Shown: positions 35,522 through 61,787 of the stretch, one piece after another
Layout: each line of letters begins with the position of its first letter
Numbering within the stretch: position 1 is the first letter of the stretch
Assembly (NCBI GenBank): GCA_001858525.1
Contig: LAPX01000001.1
Coordinates: 161,473 to 225,472, forward strand
Source: Vampirovibrio chlorellavorus
GTDB taxonomy: Bacteria; Cyanobacteriota; Vampirovibrionia; Vampirovibrionales; Vampirovibrionaceae
DNA length: 64,000 nucleotides
Direction of reading: 5' to 3'
The notes under the pieces: model-generated
Database searches by the model: none
What the model was told of the DNA's origin: nothing
What the model saw: only the letters and a program-made list of their open reading frames with translations
Program-made: the position numbers and the translations under genes

Positions 35522-38152
35522 ATGGCGGAAACACCGTTCATTCGAAAAGCGGCTGTTCTGGGCGCGGGGGCCATGGGCTCCGGTATTGCCGCCCAATTGG
35601 CCAACGCCGGGGTACAGGTGTATCTGCTGGATATTGTGCCGCCCAATGCCCCCAGTGAAGATGCCTCTGCCCGAAATCTCATTGCCAACAACGCCATCCA
35701 GCGCATGTTGAAAGCCACGCCGGCCACCGATCCGCTGAACGCCGGCTTCATGCACCCGGACAACGCCAAACGCATTACCCCCGGCAATCTGGAAGATCAT
35801 CTGGCCGAAGCGGTGGCCGATGCCGATTGGGTGGTGGAAGTGGTCATTGAGAATCTGGACATCAAACGAAACCTCTACGCCCGACTGGAAACCCTCTGTA
35901 AACCCACAGCGGTGATCTCCTCCAACACCTCCACCATCCCGCTTGAAACCCTGATTGAAGGGCGATCGATGCCCTTTAAAAAACGGTTTATCATCACCCA
36001 CTTTTTCAACCCGCCCCGCTTTATGCACCTGCTGGAAATCGTCAGCGGGCCAGATACCGATGCGGACATTGCCCCGCAAATGCAAACCTTTGGCGATGTA
36101 CATCTGGGTAAAAACGTCATTATCTGCAAAGACACCCCGGCCTTTTTGGCCAATCGTATTGGCATTTACTTCATGTTTCGGGCCATTACCGAGGCCATTG
36201 AGCAGGACATGCCCATTGAAATTGTAGACGCCATTCTGGGCAAGCCCATTGGCTACCCCAAGGAAGGCATTTTTGGCCTGCTGGATCTGGTGGGCATTGG
36301 CATTATTCCGCTGGTTACGGAAAGCTTGTTGAAAACCCTGCCCGCCGATGACGCATTCCGCAAGTTTGATCACGAAAAAGGACTGACCCTGGTGGGCAAT
36401 TTACTCAAAGCAGGATGTACCGGCCGCAATGCCCCCAACGGCGGATTTTACCGCATGCAAAAAAACGCCGATGGCACCAGGCAAAAACTGGCTATTCGCC
36501 TGAGTGATGGCGGCAACTACCCGGTGGAAAAACCCAAACTTGCCTGCGTGAAAGCGGCCCGAAAAGACGGGCCCAAAGCCATGTTTGAAACAGACGATCG
36601 CTACGGACGTTTCGCCTGGGTGGTGGTGCGGGATACCTTGTTGTATGCGGCCACGTTAATCCCCGAAATTGCCGATGACATCGCCGAGGTGGACGCCGCT
36701 TTGCGTGGCGGATACAACGCCCACTGGGGCCCCTTTGAGCAGATTGATCAAGTGGGGGTGGACTGGTTCTGTAAGCGGGTGCAAGCCGATGGCATTGCGC
36801 TACCACCTGCCTTGAAACTGGCTCAGAATCGACCCTTTTACAAAACGGTGAACGGCAAACTGCTTCGGCTGGTGTTTGATTTTGAGCGCCAACAAGCCGA
36901 ATATGCCCCCTTGCTGGATCGACCGGGCTGCCTCAACTTCGGGGAAATCAAACACAGCCAAAACGTTTTAGTCCATCACCATTCGGCCAGCCTGTGGGAT
37001 TTGGGTGATGGGGTCACCTGTCTGGAATTTCACTCCAAAATGAACACCCTGGACCCATCCGTGTTGCACGTGGTCAATGAAAGCGTGCGGTTTATGACTC
37101 AAAACGCCGCCCAATACAAAGCCATGGTCATATACAACGCGGAAAAAAACTTCTCGCTGGGGGCCAATTTGGGCCTTATTGACGCCGGCTTTCAGCTCAT
37201 CCGCCAGCCCTTCATGCGGCAAACCGGCTTAAGCCAACTCTTTGGCCTTGGATTGTACAAAGGCATTGAATGCCTGGTGTTTCAGGGGCAAAGCGTGTTC
37301 AGCGCCTTGCGCTATGCGCCATTCCCGGTGGTGGGCGCTCCCAACGGCATGGCCATCGGGGGCGGCTGCGAAATTTTAATGCACTGCGACGCCCTGCAAC
37401 TAAACGCGGAAGCCTACATGGGGCTGGTGGAAAGCGGGGTGGGTCTTATCCCCGGCTGGGGCGGCTGCGCCCGCTATCTGGCCCGATGCCAGGAGGAAGC
37501 AAACCGCAAAGGTGGGGTGATTCCCCCGGTTCGCAAAGCCTTTCAGGCCATTCTGATGCCCCAACTGGCCGTGTCCACTTCCGGGCAGGACGCCCAAGGC
37601 AAACTGTGGGGCAGCCCGCAAGATGGCATAACCATGAACCCGGATCGGGTGCTGGCCGATGCCAAAGCAAAAGCGCTCTCCCTGATTCCAAACTATCAGC
37701 CGCCACAACCCAGCACCTATCGCTTGCCTGGCCCCAGCGGCAAAGCGGCCTTGCAAATGGCCATTGATGATTTCTATGCCAAAGGCGATGCAACCTGGCA
37801 CGATGTGGTGGTGGCCGATGCCCTGGCCGACGTGTTGACCGGGGGTCCCACCAGCAGCGCACAAACTGTATCCGAAAACGATTTGTTACAGCTGGAGCGG
37901 GAACAGTTTTTATCCCTGATTCGGCTGAAGCAAACCCAAAAACGCATTGCCCACACCCTGAAAAGCGGCAAGCCACTGCGAGAAGATCCCGCCCGTGTGA
38001 GCGATTCACTGGATGAGTTACGAAAGGCTCGTACCGTCAAAGCACTGGCCAAACGAACTGTGACCGGGCTGCCCTTGATTGGGCTGGATGCCCTGCAACT
38101 GCGCTGGATGGCCGAGTTTACAGCGATTTTACTGAAGAAATTCGCTCCCTAG
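35522..38152 (+). CDS. bifunctional 3-hydroxyacyl-CoA dehydrogenase / enoyl-CoA hydratase (HAD domain N-terminal, crotonase domain C-terminal)
   Basis: NAD-binding AAVLGAGAMGSGIAAQLA at the N-terminus; crotonase-fold VVGAPNGMAIGGGCEILMHCD...GLIPGWGG in the C-terminal half. Confidence 0.88.
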   Translation: MAETPFIRKAAVLGAGAMGSGIAAQLANAGVQVYLLDIVPPNAPSEDASARNLIANNAIQRMLKATPATDPLNAGFMHPDNAKRITPGNLEDHLAEAVADADWVVEVVIENLDIKRNLYARLETLCKPTAVISSNTSTIPLETLIEGRSMPFKKRFIITHFFNPPRFMHLLEIVSGPDTDADIAPQMQTFGDVHLGKNVIICKDTPAFLANRIGIYFMFRAITEAIEQDMPIEIVDAILGKPIGYPKEGIFGLLDLVGIGIIPLVTESLLKTLPADDAFRKFDHEKGLTLVGNLLKAGCTGRNAPNGGFYRMQKNADGTRQKLAIRLSDGGNYPVEKPKLACVKAARKDGPKAMFETDDRYGRFAWVVVRDTLLYAATLIPEIADDIAEVDAALRGGYNAHWGPFEQIDQVGVDWFCKRVQADGIALPPALKLAQNRPFYKTVNGKLLRLVFDFERQQAEYAPLLDRPGCLNFGEIKHSQNVLVHHHSASLWDLGDGVTCLEFHSKMNTLDPSVLHVVNESVRFMTQNAAQYKAMVIYNAEKNFSLGANLGLIDAGFQLIRQPFMRQTGLSQLFGLGLYKGIECLVFQGQSVFSALRYAPFPVVGAPNGMAIGGGCEILMHCDALQLNAEAYMGLVESGVGLIPGWGGCARYLARCQEEANRKGGVIPPVRKAFQAILMPQLAVSTSGQDAQGKLWGSPQDGITMNPDRVLADAKAKALSLIPNYQPPQPSTYRLPGPSGKAALQMAIDDFYAKGDATWHDVVVADALADVLTGGPTSSAQTVSENDLLQLEREQFLSLIRLKQTQKRIAHTLKSGKPLREDPARVSDSLDELRKARTVKALAKRTVTGLPLIGLDALQLRWMAEFTAILLKKFAP

Positions 38153-38966
38153 GGTAGTCGATCAGAAAACCGTCATAGGCCAACCAGCCCTTCATGTCTC
38201 GACCAGGGCGATTCACTTGGCCTTGAGGGACGTACCGTAGCAAGGCTTTCTCCAGGGTGACAAAACCCAATTGTTTAAAACGCGTTCTATCCTCGGCAGA
38301 TTCTGGCTTGATAAGCAGGCGCAAGTTCTCTTTTCGGGCTTGTTGCATGGCTTCCTGCAACAGATAATCTTCAATGGCTTCTCCCAACTCGCTCTGTCGA
38401 ATGGCATTAGGAATATCGACTTCCAGTGCGTAAAAGGTCTTGGGTTCGGTGTTGCCCAGCATACGAGAAGCCCGCTCACGCCGCAGGGTACCCAAGGTAA
38501 GACCGATTGAGTTTTTCAACCAAAAAGCCCCATGGTCACTTAAATTGCCATATTGGGATAACACATGCTCCACAGCCTTGGCGTCGTCTACCACAGCCAC
38601 TTTTTTCTCAATTTTAAGGCGTTGTGGAATGGGAATTTGTGGGGCTTGATAAAGCCCAGGCGCCCCAAAACGAACCGGGCTTGCCTTAGACGGGGCTGGT
38701 TTTCGGTGGGTCGAACCCAGCGGCAGTAACATCAGCTCGGTCACAGAAGGTTGCTTTTTGAAACGATTACCAAGCCCCTGCCAGAGCGTTTGCAGCTTTT
38801 GCCAAATCATGGTGGCGCAATGAACATCATTTTCAGCAGTTGAATCCAGCGGCAAGGGTGCCGTCAAGGGCCAGTTGGGATAACGCTCCGCAACAGTCAC
38901 AGGCTTCAATTGCCTGTTCATTCTGGAAACTGGCTGTTGCCCCAATGAGGATACAGTGCTGTTCAT
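38118..38966 (-). CDS. hypothetical protein with GNAT-like acetyltransferase C-terminal half
   Basis: C-terminal region FYALEVD...GEAIEDYLLQEA...LRLLI compatible with the GNAT fold; the true start is probably internal. Confidence 0.35.
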   Translation of the reverse strand: MNSTVSSLGQQPVSRMNRQLKPVTVAERYPNWPLTAPLPLDSTAENDVHCATMIWQKLQTLWQGLGNRFKKQPSVTELMLLPLGSTHRKPAPSKASPVRFGAPGLYQAPQIPIPQRLKIEKKVAVVDDAKAVEHVLSQYGNLSDHGAFWLKNSIGLTLGTLRRERASRMLGNTEPKTFYALEVDIPNAIRQSELGEAIEDYLLQEAMQQARKENLRLLIKPESAEDRTRFKQLGFVTLEKALLRYVPQGQVNRPGRDMKGWLAYDGFLIDYPRERISSVKSL

Positions 38967-39282: not shown

Positions 39283-40203
39283 ATGCCCAATCATCCCGGT
39301 CAATCGAGATTACATCGCCGTGCTTGGGGAAATGTAACGCCCGAGTATGCCCTGATTGGTGCGATTGTTCTCGGCGCGTCCTGTGTGGCCTTGGCCAATA
39401 TTGGAGATACGGTCTCCATTCTGTTTAATAATATGCTGGGCACCAAGCCAAAGCAAACCACTGAAGTCACCGCGCCGCCAACAGGCAACGGGCAAGTTAA
39501 TCCTCCCCCTCAGCAAGGTGCAGGGGTGCGCATCACCCTCTCTGATGGGACCATCATCCACTTACCGGAATACCCGCAGGATCTCACCTCATTAATCAGC
39601 ACGGCAGGGGCAAATGGAGCCACCGATGTACTGGCCAACACCATCAAAGTACTGGCCCAACAATTGCTGGATAGTGGCGCCATTACAAAGGCAGAATTCA
39701 ATAACCTGATTGCTATGTCCAACCAGGGTCACCGCATTGCCAATGTTCAAAAAGCCATTGAATCCGTGGCCCAAAATTCGAGCAGTCCCTCAGAGTTTAG
39801 TTCCAGTATGTTTGAGTTCGATGGGAACACATACAGTCTGGATGAAATCACTGCGCTCATTGGTTTCGATAACGATTCCATGGATCCCAACGCGGTTGTG
39901 GATCACCTAACCGACCCCACAGCCAGCCCCGAAATCAGTGCTTTTCAAAATCTTTTCGCAAAAGCACTGCAGACCGGCGCGTTGGATGATCCAGTGCTCC
40001 GGGATGTGGTTCAGACCTTATCAGAACAAATTCTGTCATTAAGCGACCTGACTAACATTGCAGCCTACAATATTGCAGATTACTCAGCACCTCCAAGCAG
40101 TATGACTCAGAATATAACAAGCAATTTAACCGATCAAAAAGCGGCTGGAATCTGTGGTGCCGGGGCCGGTGTGGATTCCGGAGTGCAATGCTCAGCCACC
40201 TGA
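39283..40203 (+). CDS. large Flp/Tad-type pilin-like protein, copy 1 (class III signal peptide plus ~270-aa C-terminal domain with terminal Cys-Cys loop)
   Basis: Leader MPNHPGQSRLHRRAWG|NVTPEYALIGAIVLG matches the Flp G|xxxxEY(G/A)(L/I)I motif; conserved mid-region NQGHRIANVQKAIE; C-terminal C-GAGAGVDSGVQ-C. Confidence 0.7.
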   Translation: MPNHPGQSRLHRRAWGNVTPEYALIGAIVLGASCVALANIGDTVSILFNNMLGTKPKQTTEVTAPPTGNGQVNPPPQQGAGVRITLSDGTIIHLPEYPQDLTSLISTAGANGATDVLANTIKVLAQQLLDSGAITKAEFNNLIAMSNQGHRIANVQKAIESVAQNSSSPSEFSSSMFEFDGNTYSLDEITALIGFDNDSMDPNAVVDHLTDPTASPEISAFQNLFAKALQTGALDDPVLRDVVQTLSEQILSLSDLTNIAAYNIADYSAPPSSMTQNITSNLTDQKAAGICGAGAGVDSGVQCSAT

Positions 40204-40352
40204 TTTTTCGATACGCCTGACCGTGACTTAAAGTTAACCGACCGACAAAAACAAGTCTGTAATTTGGAAGCTACAGGGGCCTCTAGAATGGAGGATTGAT
40301 GAAAGCCCACCCGTTTTTTAAACCCAATGTAAAAACATTTATAAATCCCTAA

Positions 40353-40640
40353 AGATTTGAGAAAAACCGTCGAAAAAAAGCTAAAGATTAGGATTTACCA
40401 ACTTTAACCATCATTTACTTTATCAGGAGAACCTTATGCGGCGTAAATACCCAGGCAGACCATACCGAACCGCCACTGTGGGGAATACTCTAACAGAATA
40501 TGGAATTATCGGTTTCATTGTCTTGGGGCTTAGCTGGTTGGCACTCAGCAACATGGGGGACTTTGTCTCTACCCTGTTCAAAAATATGTTGGGACAAAAA
40601 CCATCGCCAACGGCACAAGTCGCTGCACCACCGTCTTCAG
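40353..40640 (+). repeat. direct repeat A (~290 bp): conserved promoter, 5'UTR, leader and N-terminal coding module of Flp-like copy 2
   Basis: About 95% nucleotide identity to 41456..41741 (GAAAAACCGTCGAAAAAAAGCTAAAGATTAGGATTTACCAACTTTAACCA...ATCAGGAGAACCTTATG...); similarity ends abruptly after ...GCTGCACCACCGTC. Confidence 0.8.
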
Positions 40641-41356
40641 TAAGCCCTCCCACGGATACTGAGGGGCCACTGACCAGTGATGTACAAGTGACCTTAGGCA
40701 ATGGCACTACCCTGGATCTGTCAAGCTACCCCCTGGATTTTACAGAATCTGTTGTCACATCAGGCGCCAACGGAACTACCAACCTGCTCGCCAATACCCT
40801 TAAATCTCTTTCTCAACAACTCCTGGAAAAAGGAGAAATCAACCAAGATCAGTTCAACACACTAATCGCCCTGGCCAATCAAGGGCACCGGATGGCAAAG
40901 ATCCAAAAAGTCATTGAGACAATGGCCTTGAACTCAACTAGCTCCAATAAATATTACAACAGTGTTTTTAATTTTGATGGACAGACTTATACCGTAGATG
41001 AAATCAGTATGATGATAGGGTTTGACTATGATGATCCCTCTTCAATTTCAGACCCTTTAACGGATCCAAACGGTGGTGCAGAAGTCATAGAATACCAAAT
41101 GCTTTTTCAACAGGCAGTCAACAGCGGCGCCTTAAATGATCCGACTTTAAATCAAGTCATACGAACATTATCATCCCAAATCATATCGTTATCGGCTTTA
41201 ACCGAACATGCCTCTTACAATATCGCTATTATTGGAGATCCCCCAGACAGTATAAGAGAAAATATTACCAGTAATTTAAACAATAAAAACGCAGCCGGGA
41301 TCTGCGGGGCAGGCAACGGTGTGGATAATGGAGTCCAGTGTGCGTCAGGCGGCTAG
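40436..41356 (+). CDS. large Flp/Tad-type pilin-like protein, copy 2
   Basis: MRRKYPGRPYRTATVG|NTLTEYGIIGFIVLG; conserved NQGHRMAKIQKVIE; C-terminal C-GAGNGVDNGVQ-C; RBS CAGGAGAA. Confidence 0.7.
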   Translation: MRRKYPGRPYRTATVGNTLTEYGIIGFIVLGLSWLALSNMGDFVSTLFKNMLGQKPSPTAQVAAPPSSVSPPTDTEGPLTSDVQVTLGNGTTLDLSSYPLDFTESVVTSGANGTTNLLANTLKSLSQQLLEKGEINQDQFNTLIALANQGHRMAKIQKVIETMALNSTSSNKYYNSVFNFDGQTYTVDEISMMIGFDYDDPSSISDPLTDPNGGAEVIEYQMLFQQAVNSGALNDPTLNQVIRTLSSQIISLSALTEHASYNIAIIGDPPDSIRENITSNLNNKNAAGICGAGNGVDNGVQCASGG

Positions 41357-41455
41357 AATCCTGATTAGTCCATTCGCCTGAGCTGTGGAAAACTAGCCGA
41401 CCACAATTCTTAGAAAGTTTTGATTCGAATGTAGAAAATAATATAGAAATGCCTT

Positions 41456-41741
41456 CAGATTAAAGAAAAACCGTCGAAAAAAAGCTAAAGATTAGGATTT
41501 ACCAACTTTAACCAATGCTCACTGTATCAGGAGAACCTTATGTAGCGTAAATACCGAGGCAAAACGTACCGAACCACCACTGTGGGGAATTCCCTAACAG
41601 AATATGGAATCATCGGTCTCATTGTCTTGGGGCTTAGCTGGTTGGCACTCAGCAACATGGGGGACTTTGTCTCCACCCTGTTCAAAAACATGTTGGGAGA
41701 AAAACCATCGTCAACGGCACAAGTCGCTGCACCACCGTCCT
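41456..41741 (+). repeat. direct repeat B (~290 bp): 5' module of Flp-like copy 3, near-identical to repeat A
   Basis: See 40353..40640. Confidence 0.8.
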
Positions 41742-42460
41742 CAGGCGCAGGTATCAACACCCCTGACGCACTCACGAATAACCTGAACGATGGAAGCTTA
41801 CTTGAAATTGGATTAAGTAAAAGGTTGCAAACGTTAGGGGCAAACGGTGCAACTTCTACTCTGGCAAACGAATTGATAAGAGTGGCAGAGGAGGCCTTGG
41901 CTACTGAAAAAATCAATCAAGAGCAGTATGATATTTTGATACAGCTTGCTAATCAAGGTCACAGAATGGCTGACATTCAGTTTATGATTGAGAATGCCAT
42001 TGAACTTTCTAATGGGAATTATAATGAATTTAGTTCGAGTGAAGTTACCTGGGATGGGCGTACTTATACGGTATTAGAACTCTCTAAGATGTTAGGTCAT
42101 GATGGCTCGCCTAATATTTACACATCAGAAGGAAATATTTTAGAAGATCTATCTTCTATGAAAAACAGTGCCGTAGATCCTGAACTGGCTGCATTTATAA
42201 ATCTGTATAAGCAAGCACTGGATAGCGGCGCTCTATCGGATCCTTTGGTGAGCTCCACCGTGGAAAGCGCAGCCACTCAGATTGCAAGTATTGGGGAAAT
42301 TGTACAGCATTCTATTTATGAATTTTCAGAAGGTGATGTTAACACCGTTTCCGAGTTTAAGGATAACCAGGTTTCCATTGCAACAGATATGGAGTCTTCT
42401 AATATTTGCAAGGCTGGAGATTACGACGACAGTGGCGTTTACTGTTCACCCAAGAATTAG
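41582..42460 (+). CDS. large Flp/Tad-type pilin-like protein, copy 3. The ancestral start ATG at 41537 is followed immediately by TAG, so the ORF can only initiate at GTG 41582 (leader reduced to about 2 aa). Possible pseudogene or silent cassette
   Basis: atgTAGcgtaaatac... vs copy 2 atgCGGcgtaaatac...; downstream frame encodes ...TTTVG|NSLTEYGIIGLIVLG, NQGHRMADIQFMIE, C-terminal C-KAGDYDDSGVY-C. Confidence 0.55.
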   Translation: MGNSLTEYGIIGLIVLGLSWLALSNMGDFVSTLFKNMLGEKPSSTAQVAAPPSSGAGINTPDALTNNLNDGSLLEIGLSKRLQTLGANGATSTLANELIRVAEEALATEKINQEQYDILIQLANQGHRMADIQFMIENAIELSNGNYNEFSSSEVTWDGRTYTVLELSKMLGHDGSPNIYTSEGNILEDLSSMKNSAVDPELAAFINLYKQALDSGALSDPLVSSTVESAATQIASIGEIVQHSIYEFSEGDVNTVSEFKDNQVSIATDMESSNICKAGDYDDSGVYCSPKN

Positions 42461-48363: not shown

Positions 48364-48844
48364 AAACGCTTCTCCTATTCAGTATGAACAAAGTGGTCAA
48401 AAAAAAACTTCAGTTGAGGGTTCGAGTCGTAAGTAAAACAGCAAATGGCTCAGTGAGACTTGTTTCAGGGTCACTGGCCCATTGCCAAGCTCTTGAGTCA
48501 TTAACTCCTGAGCCGTAAAACCGGGGGTGAGGATCTCAAACTGCCATCTATTGTACAGAAAATGCGGTATTTTCAAAGCGCTGTTTTCAATCCTTGGGGG
48601 ATAAGCCGCTTGAAGCCTATGCCTGAAAACGACTGCCCGTGTATGATTCTGGGGATTTGTTAACTTTATCGAATTTTTTTTCGAATTAACGCTTGCCTTT
48701 TTGCCAAGGAAGAGTATCATAGAATTTACGTTCGATAGAAAAAGCGTTCGAGAGCAATTAAAACACCGCTCATCAATCGCTTACCTGTCAATCAATCGAA
48801 CCCCATTACAATCACTCTCATTTAGAGAACACGCCGCCAGCAAG

Positions 48845-49528
48845 ATGGACCTGAATAAGATGAAAGACGATTTGACCGCCAAACAACAAGAAGTGCTGAA
48901 CCAGTTGCTGGCCTTTGTTCTGGAGAACAACTACCCCCCTTCCATTCAGCAACTTTGCCAGTTATGCGGAGTCAGTTCCACTTCCACCATTCACTTTCAT
49001 CTCAGCGCCTTAAAAAAGAAGGGGCTGATTGACTGGAACCCCTCTGAAAAAAGGGCCATCAGTATTCGGGAAGATCTGCGAGACGAGTATCGCGCTTCTC
49101 AACATCGCGGTGATGACAACGAAGCACTAGAAAATACCGAGCCTGAAGCGGTCAAAAATGGCGTGCTTCCCCTGTTGGGGTCTATCGCGGCGGGCTCTCC
49201 CCTGCAAACCCTGAAAGATACTGTGGAACGCATTGATCTGAGCGAAGACTTGTGCCCGCCGGGCTGCTATGCCCTGAAGGTTCGAGGGACCAGCATGATT
49301 GAAGATCATATTATGGATGAGGATGTGGTCATCATTAATCCGAAAGCCCGAGTGCGGGAGGGTGATGTGGTCGTTGCCCTGGTTGATCAGGAAATGGCCA
49401 CCCTCAAACGCTTTTACCGTGAGAAAGATCGGATTCGCCTGCAGCCCGCCAATTCCGAGATGGAACCTATCTATGTCAAAGACGTCCATATCCAAGGAAA
49501 GGTTGAGGCCGTCATCCGCAAGTTTTAA
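48845..49528 (+). CDS. lexA: LexA repressor (SOS regulator, S24 peptidase)
   Basis: Winged-HTH N-domain (QLCQLCGVSSTSTIHFHLSALKKKGLI); C-terminal S24 catalytic Ser (VRGTSMIED) and Lys (ATLKRFYRE) regions; start taken at Met 48845 rather than the ORF-track 48701. Confidence 0.88.
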   Translation: MDLNKMKDDLTAKQQEVLNQLLAFVLENNYPPSIQQLCQLCGVSSTSTIHFHLSALKKKGLIDWNPSEKRAISIREDLRDEYRASQHRGDDNEALENTEPEAVKNGVLPLLGSIAAGSPLQTLKDTVERIDLSEDLCPPGCYALKVRGTSMIEDHIMDEDVVIINPKARVREGDVVVALVDQEMATLKRFYREKDRIRLQPANSEMEPIYVKDVHIQGKVEAVIRKF

Positions 49529-51400: not shown

Positions 51401-52056
51401 AAGGAACCCGCCTCTTATATAGCAAATCTTTTATAGAACAGTTTGGAAAAATGGATGTTCAGAAACCCCAAAGACCATTTTACGAATACTACTTACTACA
51501 TAGATACTAATACGTGTGACTAACCAAATTTTCAGGAGATTAAGGCTTTTGAAGGCGTTTCCGTTCGGCCTAAAACCTTAACTCAACGATTCGAAAAGTT
51601 TTGTTATTATAAGTGACTTTTCAGAAATAGCAAAGTACTCCATAGAGTGATAGACAATATCGACATCAAGTGTGAACTTTTTTGAAGCGTTCAACCCCAT
51701 TTCAGAACCGAACCGTTCTCTTGCCTGAAGAAAATGCTGAAATCCTTGTGAGTCAAGAATGAAAGCCCGTTCTGCAATCAACAACGTCAGCAGATCATCA
51801 GCAAAGGCCTTTCTCCCTCCCCCCAAAGCAAAAGCACTGAAACATAGGACAGAAGGCCATTTCAGACAGTTTCATCTTGCTTGCGGATTGCGAGGCTGCT
51901 TCTCTGCCAAGCAAGTCTAAACAAAGCTTTTTGTTTGCTTTCAGTACTTTTTTCATATCATGGTCACAAAGTTTTGTTGCAATTAGTACAAACGAGCAAC
52001 TTTCCTCCTTCACCGTCATTGATAGCAGTATCAAGCTCGTTAGCTACTAGGGTGTT

Positions 52057-53151
52057 ATGGTAACGACAACTCTAAACAGCATTACCTTGCCGTCCAAACG
52101 GTCCACAGGGAAAACTCTACCTGTGCGCTTTGGTTCCGGCAGCGCCATCCTGGCCAAAACGGCCGGGCCAGAGGTTCAGCATGAAGCCGTGGTACGCGGA
52201 TACCGTTTTGCCAGCTTCATCAAAAACCGCCTGCTGGGTGGAAAGCTGTTTAATAATGATATCCGTTGGGGCGGTTTATCCCTGGAGGATATGGCCAGTC
52301 GGGTACAAACCCTGTTGGGCGTTTATCTGCTGCAAGGCTACTACGCCATTAAAGACGACAAACACCCTTGGGAAACCAATGGCCGGAACGCTGTTATCTG
52401 GGTGATGACCCTGTTGCTGCAAAACCTGGCCAAAAGTGAGAATTACGGGGTCAATACCCTGCTCTTCAACCCGTTTATGCGGCAAAAAGGATACCTCTCC
52501 TCAGAAATGTCCGGGCTGCAAAAATTCCTCGATCGCGGCCGCATGGACGTGGATTATCTGGATATCCTGCAAGATGCCGGCATTAAAATCAGTGATGACG
52601 AGCTAAAGGGCGCCCGAAAGGGTAAAAAAGCCTTGTGGGCCTCCTCTTGGCTGGACGCTAACAAGACGGATATCATTAAAAAACGATATCGGGACCTCCA
52701 TCAAAAGATACAGGAAAACGCCAAAGCCCTGGCCGACAAAAAGCCCATTCCCCATATCCTGACCCCTCTGGAAAAAGCCATAGAAAAAGAGATTCCCCGG
52801 TTTTTTAAACGAATAAATGGCTGGAACATGGCATCCACAGGGCTAGTCGTCGGAGCCACCATATATTTCATTGGCGGGGTGGCCATGGATATCGTCAACA
52901 AAGTCATCTCTCCCCTGGACAAAGACTTTGAAGGCAACAAGAACCTACCCCCCGACCAAATTCTTAAAAATCCCATCCTGGCCAAAACCCACCCGCCTCA
53001 GAGTACCCTCACCAACACCCCGTTTTCACCCACCACTACCAGTAGCATCACCACACCGCCAATCCAATTTTTTCAGAGTTATGTGAGTCACCGTCGTCAT
53101 AGCACCCCATCTACCCTTCCCGGCTCTAGTCTTCCCGGAGGGCTTGGTTGA
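52057..53151 (+). CDS. hypothetical alpha-helical protein with C-terminal hydrophobic segment and S/T/P-rich tail (first gene of a coupled pair behind an AT-rich island)
   Basis: 364-aa ORF, K/E-rich coiled-coil-like; TM-like GLVVGATIYFIGGVAM; stop TGA overlaps the next start (TGATG). Confidence 0.55.
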   Translation: MVTTTLNSITLPSKRSTGKTLPVRFGSGSAILAKTAGPEVQHEAVVRGYRFASFIKNRLLGGKLFNNDIRWGGLSLEDMASRVQTLLGVYLLQGYYAIKDDKHPWETNGRNAVIWVMTLLLQNLAKSENYGVNTLLFNPFMRQKGYLSSEMSGLQKFLDRGRMDVDYLDILQDAGIKISDDELKGARKGKKALWASSWLDANKTDIIKKRYRDLHQKIQENAKALADKKPIPHILTPLEKAIEKEIPRFFKRINGWNMASTGLVVGATIYFIGGVAMDIVNKVISPLDKDFEGNKNLPPDQILKNPILAKTHPPQSTLTNTPFSPTTTSSITTPPIQFFQSYVSHRRHSTPSTLPGSSLPGGLG

Positions 53152-56081
53152 TGGGCATGCTTCCAATGGCTATGCAGCTGAACCCCTGGGCACAACGAGC
53201 GCTGGCTCAGTCAGTGAACCTGGGCTACGCTGGACGGGGCACCTATCGGGTTCATGAAACCAACCCGGAGCGCAAAGGGGATTATTGGTTTCGGGACTTT
53301 GGCATGGTCATGGCTTGCACCTACATGACCGAAATGGGCTTCCGGGGAACCGAACGCTTTTACACCATGCCCTTGTTGACCAACGCCCTGGAGCTTCAGG
53401 CCCTCAGAACCGAGCTTGGCCAAAAGCGGGTTATCCCCACCTTTGATACAGTGCAAATAAAAAATGGCGCACGCACAGACTCTGTCCAGTTGCTCAATTC
53501 CAAGCCCCTGTATCCACGGGCCTGGAACTATTCCGAGTTGCCCGAAGCGCTGCGTGAGAAGATGATGGGCACCCTGATCCGCAACAGTTCCGAGCTGGTG
53601 CCCCAAGTGTTGCAGGAAGAAGCCCTGAATGAAATCAGGGCGCTAGAAATCAAGGCGTTAAAAGAAAAGGCGTTAAAAGAAAAGAATCCCCCGCCTTATA
53701 AAAGCTTGAAACAGCTCATCACCCATCCGCTCAACCCGGATAATGGCAACTTGGTGGAAGCGTTCATCGAAAAAACCGCCGGACTCAGCAGCCATCGGGC
53801 CGAGTTGGAACGCATCGCCAAAATTGACAACAAAGCCACGGCCGAGGCGGAAACCCAAAAACTCTTTCAGAAACTATCCGCCACCCACACGGACAAAGAA
53901 ACGCTGAAGGCCCACATTCAGCAATCCGTGCAACTGCTCAAAACCGAGCAGTTGGGCATTCTGATCAACCATCTGGATCGCAACCTGAACTTTCAGCATT
54001 ATTTGGAAAGCAACTTTTTAAAACCCAAAGCAGAAGTCCTCAAGCCCAAGGGCGCCATTGAGCCTCGTTACTTCAAGTTGCCGGAAGCTTTGGCCCCGCG
54101 TAACCCCTTTAGCGCCGTGGATGAAATATCCGGCATTGTGTCCGATCGGATGCGCTTTTACATTGATAAACTCAATAGCCTACAGCACCAGGGAAAAGCC
54201 GATTTACGCAGCCTGGCCGAAAAAGTCCGGAGGCTGCCTCTGGATCAGCGGGAAAAAGCCTTCACCAAAGGTATTCAGGAAATCGAAAACCTGCAGTTTC
54301 TGTACAAAAAACAATCTCTGACCGACCACTGGCATGCCTCCACCAGCAAAGATATTTTGAAACTGATGGAAGAAGAGAAGTTAGATACTAACGCGGCGCA
54401 GGATCTCATCAAACAGGAAAACCTGGAGCGACAAACAATCCTGCAAGGCATTCAAAAAAGTAAAAAGCAGCTTGGCAACCAGGATCAAAAGCTAAAGTGT
54501 CTGGAAGAATGGGCCGACAACAACCACAATTATCTGCTGAACTGGGAAAACGAATTCCGCATTGAAAAAGACCGGCTTCAGGCTTTTCTGACCAAACCCA
54601 CCGAGCGGGCCCACAAGCCCAAGGGATACATTTCCATGAACCAGCTGAACACCCAGCTAGGGCATTTTGAAGGCTGGTTTGAAACGATCTCCAAAAGCCT
54701 GCAAGTCCGAAACGCCATTTTGGACAACTTGTGGCAGCACTTGGGCGAGGATTTGCTGCTGCAAGTGAAGAAAAAAGTAAAAACCGCCTTTGAAGACGTC
54801 AACAAACTCTCCTACGAGCACTTACCCCTCTATACCGAAGGTCCGCTGAAAGGCCAACCGGTGGAGAAAGGGAAACTGCTAGAAGCCCGATTACAAGATA
54901 TTGGCCTGCGGCACTGGCTGGATGATAGCGAAATCAAGCATTTAAGTGAAGATTTGGCCCAGCATTTACCAAAAATGTCCAGTACCACTGAGACCGCCAA
55001 AGACCTTGAGCAGCACAGCGTGGAATCAGTCATGGGCAAGGTCAAAAAGACCATTTGGGCTCACCTGACCGGTGATGTGGATTACAACAACCTGAACGAT
55101 TCGTTCTGTAAAAACTTAAAAGCCCAAGTGGATGCCAAACTGAACGCGCTGAGCCCAGAACAGCAAACCACGCTGAAGGCCGGAAAAATACGGGGCAAGC
55201 TGTTCAGTCAGCTTACCAACACCGATGCCTTCGGCAACCCGCTCTCCAATCAGTACGAAGAGGGCATGGAAACCCTGCTGAAAAAAATCCTGAACGAAGC
55301 AAACCTGCACGTTGTTAAGAATCAGAGCGGTCACGAGGTTAAAAGTGCGGAGTGGACGGTTAAAAGCCTGATTACTGATGGCTTGCAAAGCCATATGGTC
55401 AAGTCCGCGGTGGATAAGATTCAGAAAAACGGCACCTGGCCCAAAATTCTGGCCACCGTGGGGCTTAACTTCGTCTTCTACGGATGGCTGGCCAGCCGCT
55501 TTGACAATAAAGTTCTGCAACCCTACCAGGAAAAGCTGGTGGCTGAAAAAGGAACCGCTCAGGATATCGTCAATGCCGGCTATCTGGGTACCTTGCCCGC
55601 CGTTGCTATTCTCTCCCAGGCCTGGGACAAAACCACCTTGCCAATGCTCAACGGCCTGAGACGTATGAACCACTTCAGCCGCTTTGCCTCCGTGGGTGGC
55701 GTAGCGCTGGGCGTGTTTGCAGCCTCTTCCTATGGATTCCTGAAAGTTTTGGAAAAAAAGTCAGCCCCCCAACCCGGATATCCCAAAAAGCAACCCCCTG
55801 CGGTGACACCAAACACCCAGCCATCCGTGCAACCAACCTTTAACGCCCTATCAAAGCCCGCCATTACGCCGCCTGCATCCAGTCTGGATAGCCCCTTCAG
55901 TAATCGAAGCCAGTTGAACGGCCTACCCTTTCAAAGTTATCGTCCTCAGGCCACCGCGTTCAACCAGCCGCAAAAGCGTCCCGTACTGAATCGATCCAGT
56001 GCCGGGCCGACTTTTCTATTTCCACCCTGCTTTCAAGGACAACCCTTTCCTGTAAAGCAACCGCTGCCTAAGGCTGAGTAG
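53151..56081 (+). CDS. large hypothetical coiled-coil protein (976 aa) with bilobed C-terminal hydrophobic region and Pro/Gln-rich tail
   Basis: Long K/E/Q/L-rich helical sequence (e.g. EIKALKEKALKEKNPPP); hydrophobic ILATVGLNFVFYGWLA and FASVGGVALGVFAASSYGF near the C-terminus; no enzymatic motif; ATG at 53151 (ORF track starts at TTG 53148). Confidence 0.6.
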   Translation: MGMLPMAMQLNPWAQRALAQSVNLGYAGRGTYRVHETNPERKGDYWFRDFGMVMACTYMTEMGFRGTERFYTMPLLTNALELQALRTELGQKRVIPTFDTVQIKNGARTDSVQLLNSKPLYPRAWNYSELPEALREKMMGTLIRNSSELVPQVLQEEALNEIRALEIKALKEKALKEKNPPPYKSLKQLITHPLNPDNGNLVEAFIEKTAGLSSHRAELERIAKIDNKATAEAETQKLFQKLSATHTDKETLKAHIQQSVQLLKTEQLGILINHLDRNLNFQHYLESNFLKPKAEVLKPKGAIEPRYFKLPEALAPRNPFSAVDEISGIVSDRMRFYIDKLNSLQHQGKADLRSLAEKVRRLPLDQREKAFTKGIQEIENLQFLYKKQSLTDHWHASTSKDILKLMEEEKLDTNAAQDLIKQENLERQTILQGIQKSKKQLGNQDQKLKCLEEWADNNHNYLLNWENEFRIEKDRLQAFLTKPTERAHKPKGYISMNQLNTQLGHFEGWFETISKSLQVRNAILDNLWQHLGEDLLLQVKKKVKTAFEDVNKLSYEHLPLYTEGPLKGQPVEKGKLLEARLQDIGLRHWLDDSEIKHLSEDLAQHLPKMSSTTETAKDLEQHSVESVMGKVKKTIWAHLTGDVDYNNLNDSFCKNLKAQVDAKLNALSPEQQTTLKAGKIRGKLFSQLTNTDAFGNPLSNQYEEGMETLLKKILNEANLHVVKNQSGHEVKSAEWTVKSLITDGLQSHMVKSAVDKIQKNGTWPKILATVGLNFVFYGWLASRFDNKVLQPYQEKLVAEKGTAQDIVNAGYLGTLPAVAILSQAWDKTTLPMLNGLRRMNHFSRFASVGGVALGVFAASSYGFLKVLEKKSAPQPGYPKKQPPAVTPNTQPSVQPTFNALSKPAITPPASSLDSPFSNRSQLNGLPFQSYRPQATAFNQPQKRPVLNRSSAGPTFLFPPCFQGQPFPVKQPLPKAE

Positions 56082-56418
56082 CCCGCACCTGGCTAATGGC
56101 CTGCGCCTCTGATTCCCAGATATCCAACACCCGATCCATGTGGGTTAACTCCATTAAACCGGAGATCTGCTTATTCAACCCGAACAGGGTCAAATTCCCG
56201 TGAATTTCCCGACACAGCTTGAGCAGGGAAATTAAAACAGCAATGCCAAAGCTGTCCAGCATTTGCACCTCGGAAAAATTCAGCACAATATGCCGGTGCC
56301 CTTCCATTAACAACTTGGCGACATGATTTTTTAAGACCATCGTCTTGGGATATCCGAACTTATCGTCGGTCACGTCTACCACAACACAACCCGGCAAAAA
56401 ACGATTGGCCAAATCCAT
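56068..56418 (-). CDS. STAS-domain anti-sigma-factor antagonist (SpoIIAA-like)
   Basis: 116 aa; ...HIVLNFSEVQMLDSFGIAVLISLLKL... typical STAS pattern. Confidence 0.7.
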   Translation of the reverse strand: MDLANRFLPGCVVVDVTDDKFGYPKTMVLKNHVAKLLMEGHRHIVLNFSEVQMLDSFGIAVLISLLKLCREIHGNLTLFGLNKQISGLMELTHMDRVLDIWESEAQAISQVRATQP

Positions 56419-57612: not shown

Positions 57613-57981
57613 TTACTTGCTTTTGGCACCCGATACGGTACCCCAGATGGAGAGTCCTATGGGGGCTACACCCATCAGCGCCGCCACCGGCAGCAATGGG
57701 TGAATAAAAATGCCTAAAAGCCCCACAGCAATACTGAGTGGCCACAGTATGACGCCACTGGCCAGGCCACCCACGCCAAAGGCCGCGGCTTTAAGACCGC
57801 CTGCAAACTGGACAGGCTTGCCTTTAACGGCTTGGGCAGACAAACCCGTGAACTGATCGGTACTGGCAATGGCAGGTCTCTGTGATACAGGAGCATACAA
57901 AGGTTGGGCACCAAAAGAAGCTTTGGCAGGGGAGGAGCCGGGTAAGCTCTGAGGGGGGGAAGAAGGTAATACGGACAGCAT
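57613..57981 (-). CDS. hypothetical small membrane protein (Pro/Ser-rich N-terminus, 2 TM helices)
   Basis: Start taken at MLSVLP (57981); no domain. Confidence 0.35.
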   Translation of the reverse strand: MLSVLPSSPPQSLPGSSPAKASFGAQPLYAPVSQRPAIASTDQFTGLSAQAVKGKPVQFAGGLKAAAFGVGGLASGVILWPLSIAVGLLGIFIHPLLPVAALMGVAPIGLSIWGTVSGAKSK

Positions 57982-58228
57982 GGCAATAGCCTTTCTGGCA
58001 AAAATATTTGCAGGCTTAGGAAATGGACAAGTACTGGTATAAAACCACCACAAGAATTTTGTTGCTAGTGCGGAATGTATTACTACAAACAGACCCAATA
58101 ATCTTTTTTTCGACCCTATCTAACAGTGCAATTTATTTTTGGGGTAATCTTGTTAAAATCATTGCAATTGATTATAAATAAACAGCAAGTGGTTCGTCGT
58201 TTAATTATGGAATGAGAAGAGTTTTACC

Positions 58229-61541: not shown

Positions 61542-61617
61542 AGGACAAGCAAAAGCACAATGGGTCTAAGAACCCTCAACAATGTTAACCCCTAAACACC
61601 ACTCTCAATAATAAATA

Positions 61618-61689
61618 TGGGCGCTACTGGACTTGAACCAGTGACTTCCACCGTGTGAAGGTGGCACTCTACCGCTGAGTTAAGCGCCC
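61618..61689 (-). tRNA. tRNA-Val (anticodon CAC)
   Basis: Reverse complement folds as a cloverleaf: acceptor GGGCGCT/AGCGCCC, D-arm ACTC-AGCGGTAGA-GAGT, anticodon arm CCACC-TTCACAC-GGTGG, T-arm ACTGG-TTCAAGT-CCAGT, discriminator A; CCA not encoded. Confidence 0.8.
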
Positions 61690-61787
61690 AAGACTCAATC
61701 ATTTCTCTAAGCACAGTATAGGGAAAAGGGATTGGCACAACAAGTCCCCACCATTCAATTGTCCAAATAAAAATATATCAGATGCAT

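Follow-up and report, generated by a model that had tools for sequence, protein, structure and literature searches.

Organization of the A-B locus

Within contig LAPX01000001.1 of the Vampirovibrio chlorellavorus assembly GCA_001858525.1, we analysed a stretch of 64,000 nucleotides (forward-strand positions 161,473 to 225,472), referred to below as the window, and focused on its positions 51,401 to 56,081. This region holds an AT-rich spacer followed by two adjacent genes on the plus strand, here called A and B, and sits between a divergent gene for a protein of 88 residues and a convergent gene for a STAS-domain protein (Table 1). Comparisons of sequence and gene order indicate that A-B is an operon of two genes that is old and has passed on vertically; outside Vampirovibrio and Melainabacteria-type genomes it was not found.

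Table 1. Features of the A-B locus, in window coordinates (ω, ratio of nonsynonymous to synonymous substitution rates, dN/dS; pLDDT, predicted local distance difference test score; L001-L003, sister genomes).
Feature	Position	Strand	Remarks
Conserved gene, 88 residues	51134-51400	-	One hydrophobic helix; divergent from A, just left of the spacer
AT-rich non-coding divergent control region	51401-52056		Between the 88-residue gene (-) and A (+); from GC content and sister spacers
Sigma-70-like promoter match, TTGCTA-16-TATAAT (10/12)	51606-51633	-	Faces the 88-residue gene; consensus match only
Conserved 136-nt block	51921-52056	+	Directly 5′ of A; from identity to L001-L003; probable purine-rich ribosome-binding stretch at 52048-52054
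Gene A, 364 residues	52057-53151	+	N-terminal module, helical middle, transmembrane helix, Pro/Ser/Thr tail
Translational-coupling junction	53137-53153	+	GGAGGG Shine-Dalgarno of B at 53137-53142, inside the last A codons
Gene B, 976 residues	53151-56081	+	From ATG at 53151
B conserved N-terminal module, residues 1-160	53151-53630	+	Invariant RKGDYWFRDFGMV...YMTE motif; ω 0.10
B all-α middle, residues 161-735	53631-55355	+	Length varies between lineages; ω 0.14
B membrane part	55356-55760	+	Three hydrophobic helices; most conserved part, ω 0.075
B disordered tail, residues 871-976 and stop	55761-56081	+	Pro/Gln/Ser-rich; pLDDT <40; fastest-evolving part, ω 0.24
STAS-domain gene (anti-sigma-factor-antagonist type)	56068-56418	-	Convergent; 14-nt overlap with the end of B at 56068-56081

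The two genes are joined by a TGATG overlap, as an initial annotation of this DNA had described: the stop codon of A (TGA, 53149-53151) and the start codon of B (ATG, 53151-53153) share one base, and the GGAGGG lies 9 nt ahead of the B ATG. A stop/start overlap of 1-11 nt is present in all 13 A-B loci compared, and in most of them the final A codons include a purine-rich, Shine-Dalgarno-like run (GGAGG, GGGAGG or GGGGG). Because the Shine-Dalgarno sequence of B lies within the end of A, the Gly-Gly conserved at the C-terminus of A reflects a constraint at the nucleotide level; the GG(L)N found there was considered as a peptide motif and is accounted for by the embedded ribosome-binding site. 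The constant adjacency and order of the genes, their overlap and the placement of the Shine-Dalgarno sequence of B inside A mean that the two proteins are made together.

Conserved synteny and purifying selection

In tblastn searches of related genomes (designated L001 onwards), the order LexA - RlmN - spacer - A - B - STAS (convergent) - TIM-barrel was recovered in L001-L004, L006 and L007, and L005 shows the same order up to a contig end that falls within A. The more distant L008, L011 and L013 retain POR - LexA - RlmN - A - B. In L010, L012 and L014 the flanks differ and the A-B pair is kept. A profile of B, whose matches in distant loci include the membrane part, recognised the gene downstream of A in L011 (1e-37), L008 (1e-36, and 2e-36 in a second comparison), L012 (4e-24), L010 (2e-9) and L014 (4e-9); the partner in L013 was not detected by this profile and shares, by eye, a D-x-K-F-I-Q-P-W juxtamembrane motif.

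Selection was measured as dN/dS against the closest relative, where synonymous divergence is unsaturated (dS of 0.46-0.88). The values are 0.11 for A and 0.15 for B as wholes, with the range among the parts of B given in Table 1, and can be set beside 0.036 for RlmN and 0.10 for the TIM-barrel protein. The core of A (residues 61-290), at 0.027, is as constrained as RlmN. The 88-residue protein is also conserved (72, 66 and 47% identity to its counterparts in L001, L002 and L003), with a dN/dS of 0.19 relative to L001, and has no family match.

Gene A has a G + C (GC) content of 51.1% and a GC content at third codon positions (GC3) of 58.6%, neighbouring genes having a GC3 of about 60%; gene B has 51.3% and 62.3%. 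A search for repeats flanking A-B returned nothing beyond 16-26 nt matches at the level of chance, and there is no flanking tRNA or integrase, the only tRNA of the window lying at 61617-61690. Those neighbours that have a Pfam annotation carry housekeeping or regulatory domains. Taken together, the synteny, the typical GC and GC3, the purifying selection and the lack of island hallmarks lead us to reject recent horizontal acquisition. The initial annotation had proposed such an acquisition from a compositional anomaly and orphan content. The composition of both genes is, however, typical and only the non-coding spacer is AT-rich; the gene order is kept in seven related species genomes and three distant loci. 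Nor is the distribution patchy, since orthologues are syntenic in every related genome recovered. Conserved synteny was found, while a confident housekeeping domain was not detectable.

All close relatives, and L008 as well, preserve this neighbourhood and the convergent overlap of B with the STAS-domain gene.

A lineage-restricted family

Database searches returned 15 relatives of B and 28 of A, all annotated as hypothetical or without a name, and those with a named source come from Vampirovibrio. Seven loci were recovered when GTDB was scanned with one genome for each species, all in Vampirovibrio, Vampirovibrionales or Melainabacteria metagenome-assembled genomes (MAGs). Among 1.84 billion representative proteins, a profile of A matched 98 representatives of clusters defined at 50% identity, with values below 1e-10 for 89, and the named matches belong only to Candidatus Melainabacteria, Vampirovibrionales and unclassified Cyanobacteria bacterium HKST-UBA MAGs; a further search with a broad profile of A gave no additional members among the candidates considered. 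Searches of viral contigs and plasmids gave no match to A or B.

Neither the 15 B-family nor the 97 A-family members have a Pfam match, and the A-family members show no domain fusions. A and B have no match in NCBIfam, PADLOC or the PDB (the last by sequence and by Foldseek, in which all matches were non-significant); neither has a known domain, in keeping with the earlier description of both as lacking enzymatic motifs. One sub-threshold PHROG match (E = 0.008), to a family of unassigned function, covers the helix and tail region. A literature search returned nothing on either protein. Paralogy between A and B was considered and is not supported: in hhalign the narrow profiles aligned over 16 columns only, with a probability of 56%, and the broad profile reached 0.4%. 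The window contains no paralogue of either gene. The A-B sequence family is uncharacterised and unclassified; a coupled pair of membrane-anchored helical proteins is, as an object, of a generic kind.

Architecture of the A and B proteins

Both proteins share one layout. A highly conserved N-terminal module is followed by an all-α middle of variable length, then by strongly conserved transmembrane helices near the C-terminus (a single helix in A and three in B), and the chain ends in a Pro-rich tail that is disordered. The N-terminus of A is disordered and bears a conserved P-R-F-G motif. It is followed by an invariant module, GGLSLED...KHPWETNGRN...KSENYGVN (residues ~70-135), which is predicted to form a helical hairpin and includes the invariant polar residues D78, R82, E106, T107, R110, N111, K126 and N133. 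The transmembrane helix spans residues 257-287 (bases 52825-52917), precedes an invariant P-L-D-x-D-F and is missing from only one of 97 A-family members. Its N-terminal flank contains 2.65 Lys + Arg and 0.29 Asp + Glu (net +2.4) and the flank after it 2.58 and 2.49 (net ~0). The tail of A, rich in Pro, Ser and Thr, comprises residues 291-364 (bases 52927-53148).

In B, hydrophobic segments at residues ~764-784, 803-824 and 845-868 are flanked by the near-invariant stretches NGTWPK, FDNKVLQPY, GT.QDIV.AGY.G..P and MNHF.RF. The length of B ranges from 477 to 976 residues across loci and is set by the helical middle, and comparison of B with itself revealed no internal repeats. In the AlphaFold2 (AF2) models both proteins are all-α. 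The B model has a mean pLDDT of 67.8 and a predicted template modelling score of 0.64, and consists mostly of helices of 10-40 residues with breaks between them; its longest helix (68 residues) continues into the first membrane segment. The A model has a mean pLDDT of 58.8 and is confident for residues 140-270 only.

These data refine the description in the initial annotation. The all-helical character and the low-complexity tails stand, the latter being Pro/Ser/Thr-rich in A and Pro/Gln/Ser-rich in B (residues 870-976). The C-terminal hydrophobic segments are also real, but B has three of them and not a bilobed pair. Of the Lys/Glu/Gln richness ascribed to both proteins, only that of B is borne out (it is rich in Leu, Lys, Ala, Glu and Gln), A being not especially rich in these residues. 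Canonical coiled coils are not supported by the short, broken helices of the B model or by a crude heptad scan, whose signal (two short windows; a score of five windows against 0.8 ± 2.6 in shuffled sequences) was equalled or exceeded in 15 of 200 shuffles.

The pattern P-x-[RQT]-F-[GA]-[GAS] in a Pro/Ser/Lys-rich setting occurs in A at residue 22 (~52120), in the 88-residue open reading frame (ORF) and in the minus-strand ORFs 57613-58098 and 38118-38966. All four are hypothetical proteins, and no fewer than three of them contain hydrophobic helices; one further ORF also matches, giving five matches against 0.43 expected from shuffles for a motif that was defined post hoc. It is kept in the orthologues of the 88- and 161-residue ORFs and throughout the A family.

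The AT-rich spacer as a divergent promoter region

The GC content of the spacer, given as roughly 40% in the initial annotation, is 39.9%, which places it among the lowest 0.3% of all 656-nt windows in the 64-kb window. The surroundings, previously put at about 56%, measure 53.5% on the RlmN side and 51.3% on the A-B side, and the whole window 51.9%. With a greedy set of ORFs, coding DNA in the window has 53.1% GC and non-coding DNA 46.8%, and many other, shorter intergenic gaps fall at 37-45%. The dip in the spacer is therefore normal for non-coding DNA here, and only its length is unusual. Two minus-strand ORFs in the spacer (51578-51826 and 51798-52034) had been noted as poorly supported, which they are, and as possible gene remnants. 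In tblastn searches they gave only fragments that mirror conservation of the DNA, and since no protein conservation was found, we consider the stretch non-coding, with no Rfam match and no conserved ORF. At the equivalent site, L001-L003 have orthologous spacers of 663-691 bp and 40-43% GC, and the spacer shrinks to as little as 74 bp in more distant relatives. The AT-rich stretch is an ordinary ancestral divergent promoter region serving A-B and the 88-residue gene.

Directly upstream of A, the 136-nt block is 97, 97 and 85% identical to L001, L002 and L003, compared to 33-45% for the adjacent spacer. It is also far more conserved than the synonymous sites of the flanking genes, which differ by 35-50% between the window and L001. 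Its core motifs TTTTTT..TATCATGG.CA, GCAAyTTTT..CTTCA.CG and GGGGTGTTATG are retained in L004-L007. A -10-like hexamer, TATCAT, lies at 51956-51961, and the same hexamer is found in the conserved lexA promoter. On the other side of the spacer, the -10 of the minus-strand sigma-70-like match falls within a block conserved in L001 and L002.

Other identities for the 136-nt block were considered and rejected. A structured RNA or riboswitch finds no Rfam match, the folds of the two strands have z-scores of 0.2 and 0.04, and the only hairpin has five pairs with weak covariation. As for a leader peptide, the ORFs that begin at the invariant ATG (51960) run for 4-32 codons and are unrelated in sequence, and the apparent similarity among the upstream peptides tracks DNA conservation in shifting frames. 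Given the lack of an Rfam match, a fold or a consistent small ORF, and the TATCAT shared with the lexA promoter, the block is probably a -10 element followed by an unstructured leader of ~95 nt that is bound by a protein or the ribosome.

The spacer also contains a 20-nt direct repeat, AAAGTTTTGTTATTATAAGT at 51595-51614 and AAAGTTTTGTTGCAATTAGT at 51968-51987 (pattern AAAGTTTTGTT..AT.AGT), with one copy in each divergent promoter region. The repeat could be a shared operator candidate of both promoters.

Other loci in the window

Upstream of lexA (48669-48751, plus strand), the pattern T[CA]GAA-N6-TTCGA is matched three times in succession around a -10-like hexamer, TATCAT, and one match, TCGAATTTTTTTTCGA, is a perfect inverted repeat. 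This block hardly varies among seven Vampirovibrionales genomes. The motif occurs nowhere else in the window and is, from its sequence, a candidate LexA operator of the lineage. The mechanically called lexA ORF begins at a TTG 48 codons 5′ of a conserved Met (MDLNKMKDDLT...). As this extension (48701-48844) covers the conserved operator/promoter block, the real start of lexA is probably near 48845.

At 39283-42460 (plus strand) lie three tandem paralogues of 306, 306 and 292 residues that are 36-52% identical and are flanked by the minus-strand ORF 38118-38966. They form the coding stretch of lowest GC in the window (GC 43-51%, GC3 41-51%), and neither Pfam nor PHROG gave a match. Each begins with G-N-x-(L/T)-(T/P)-E-Y-G-I-I-G ahead of a hydrophobic helix, a sequence that resembles the Flp/Tad-type prepilin motif (G/XXXXEY), but the proteins are ~300 residues long and end in a Cys-containing AAGICGAG.GVD.GVQC. 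This array is a better candidate than A-B for an acquired or fast-evolving surface locus.

Proposed role of A and B

We propose, with about as much confidence as doubt, that A and B are two subunits of a lineage-specific complex of the cytoplasmic membrane, likely a structural scaffold or tether of the envelope or cytoskeleton. The single transmembrane helix of A and the three of B, which are rich in small residues (Gly, Ala, Ser), would pack together within the cytoplasmic membrane as a single heteromeric bundle. Both large N-terminal parts would be cytoplasmic, as neither protein has a signal peptide and the N-terminal flank of the A helix is positively charged. The invariant N-terminal modules would then constitute the working head of the complex, acting jointly and held off the membrane by the helical spacers. 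The tail of A would lie on the periplasmic side; the side of the B tail is uncertain because the flank after the last B helix is also basic. Most likely A-B does not act as an enzyme or transporter, nor as an effector that is injected. The initial annotation had also likened the proteins to membrane-anchored tethers, and to that extent it is compatible with this proposal.

Several points weigh against a scaffold. The two proteins have no homology or fold match to any characterised scaffold, and the function proposed derives from architecture only. The many invariant polar residues in the N-terminal module of A are also compatible with catalysis or the binding of a ligand. The structure model of A is poor, as its mean pLDDT indicates. 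The topology of B is ambiguous, with a basic flank after its third helix and a second segment that is weakly hydrophobic; if that segment does not span the membrane, the B tail could be cytoplasmic.

The closest parallels, by architecture, are the membrane-anchored polar or division scaffolds PodJ and TipN of Caulobacter and EzrA of Firmicutes, which likewise combine a large cytoplasmic α-helical region with a membrane anchor, have no enzymatic motif and are lineage-restricted. PodJ also has an extracytoplasmic extension, as proposed for A. A-B differs from all three in having no sequence or fold similarity to them, in its strongly conserved C-terminal anchors (one and three helices), in the obligatory pairing of two subunits and in the lack of a folded periplasmic domain. 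The cyanobacterial coiled-coil-rich cytoskeletal proteins come from the same wider phylum and are also helical structural proteins without enzymatic domains. A and B are, by contrast, integral membrane proteins with a non-significant heptad signal, and no named match to the A profile lies outside Melainabacteria/Vampirovibrionales.

The main alternative to a scaffold, owing to the moderate hydrophobicity of the head helices, is a role in membrane shaping, fusion or fission, which we judge improbable. In such a mechanism the head helices would insert as hairpins or wedges, with the helical middles aligned along the bilayer, in the manner of reticulons, BAR-domain proteins or ESCRT-III/Vipp1. 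The wedge elements would be the two short A helices joined by the KHPWETNGRN loop together with the FGMVMACTYM helix of B. About one-third of A-family members reach transmembrane-like hydropathy in the two head helices, yet the mean hydropathy of these helices is only ~0.8 and their length falls short of what is needed to cross a membrane. Similarly, the top Foldseek matches of A are BAR-domain proteins (E = 0.8-8), but no fold match reaches significance, the TM-scores being 0.1-0.2. The lineage is also not known to have internal membranes, which counts against such a role.

An effector function, in which A and B would be a horizontally acquired, secreted or injected pair or inclusion-membrane-like proteins used on Chlorella, seems to us very unlikely. 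The predator is reported to use secretion systems (Soo et al. 2015, PMC4451040), and lineage-restricted orphans with hydrophobic segments and low-complexity tails would suit such a role. The synteny, vertical pattern, typical composition and lack of island hallmarks described above speak against it, as do the strong purifying selection, the very highly conserved membrane helices and the occurrence of the family in distant Melainabacteria. The comparison with chlamydial Inc proteins such as IncA, which are also helical, have closely spaced hydrophobic segments and lack domain matches, fares no better. Inc-type proteins have a bilobed hydrophobic domain of two transmembrane helices and a short loop, usually N-proximal. 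The segments of A-B are C-terminal, one in A and three spread over ~100 residues in B, and are thus not an N-proximal bilobed pair. A Foldseek match between the IncA soluble domain and A is non-significant (E = 8.5). The earlier suggestion of a recently acquired effector or surface pair is contradicted, above all as regards acquisition, by genes that are core, syntenic and constrained, and the Inc analogy fails on the number and position of the segments.

Equally hard to sustain is an energised trans-envelope system like ExbB/ExbD-TonB or TolQ/TolR-TolA, with the Pro-rich segments of A-B extending across the periplasm. The 3 + 1 helix count, the overlapping, translationally coupled genes and the extended Pro-rich tails do recall these systems, but superficially. 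There is no homology, in that none of the 15 B-family and 97 A-family members has a MotA_ExbB, ExbD or TonB match in Pfam or NCBIfam. No acidic residue is conserved in the membrane helices of A or B, and the only Asp in the A helix varies among Arg, Lys, Glu and Gln. The helices lie at the opposite, C-terminal end of the chain, the cytoplasmic N-terminal parts are huge and no folded domain follows the Pro-rich tail. Neither these systems nor the scaffolds named above have a defining feature that A-B shows.

Least probable of all is an SOS-linked role such as damage-induced division control: LexA is encoded two genes upstream in 10 loci and small division inhibitors are encoded beside lexA in other bacteria, but A and B greatly exceed the known SOS inhibitors in size, the pair sits without lexA in L010, L012 and L014, and SOS regulation of A-B was rejected, as only the lexA promoter contains the candidate LexA operator and none is near A-B. 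Stator-like, SOS-linked and effector roles are all poorly supported.

Implications for Vampirovibrionia

No relatives of cyanobacteria that lack photosynthesis are closer than the Vampirovibrionia, and very little is known of the cell biology specific to this lineage. V. chlorellavorus is described as a destructive predator of Chlorella cultures. A and B are strictly paired, strongly constrained and found only in this lineage, and their membrane helices and N-terminal modules are nearly invariant. The pair is thus a promising candidate for a core structural element specific to these bacteria, and it provides a clean sequence marker for the lineage. A bolder version of the scaffold proposal, which we think rather unlikely, is that A-B is an unrecognised Vampirovibrionia-specific membrane machine with a heteromeric four-helix core, two new α-helical folds and invariant head modules that bind a conserved cellular partner. 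If true, this machine would define one aspect of cell organisation in the lineage (its envelope architecture, polarity or the attachment pole for predation) without counterpart in studied bacteria.

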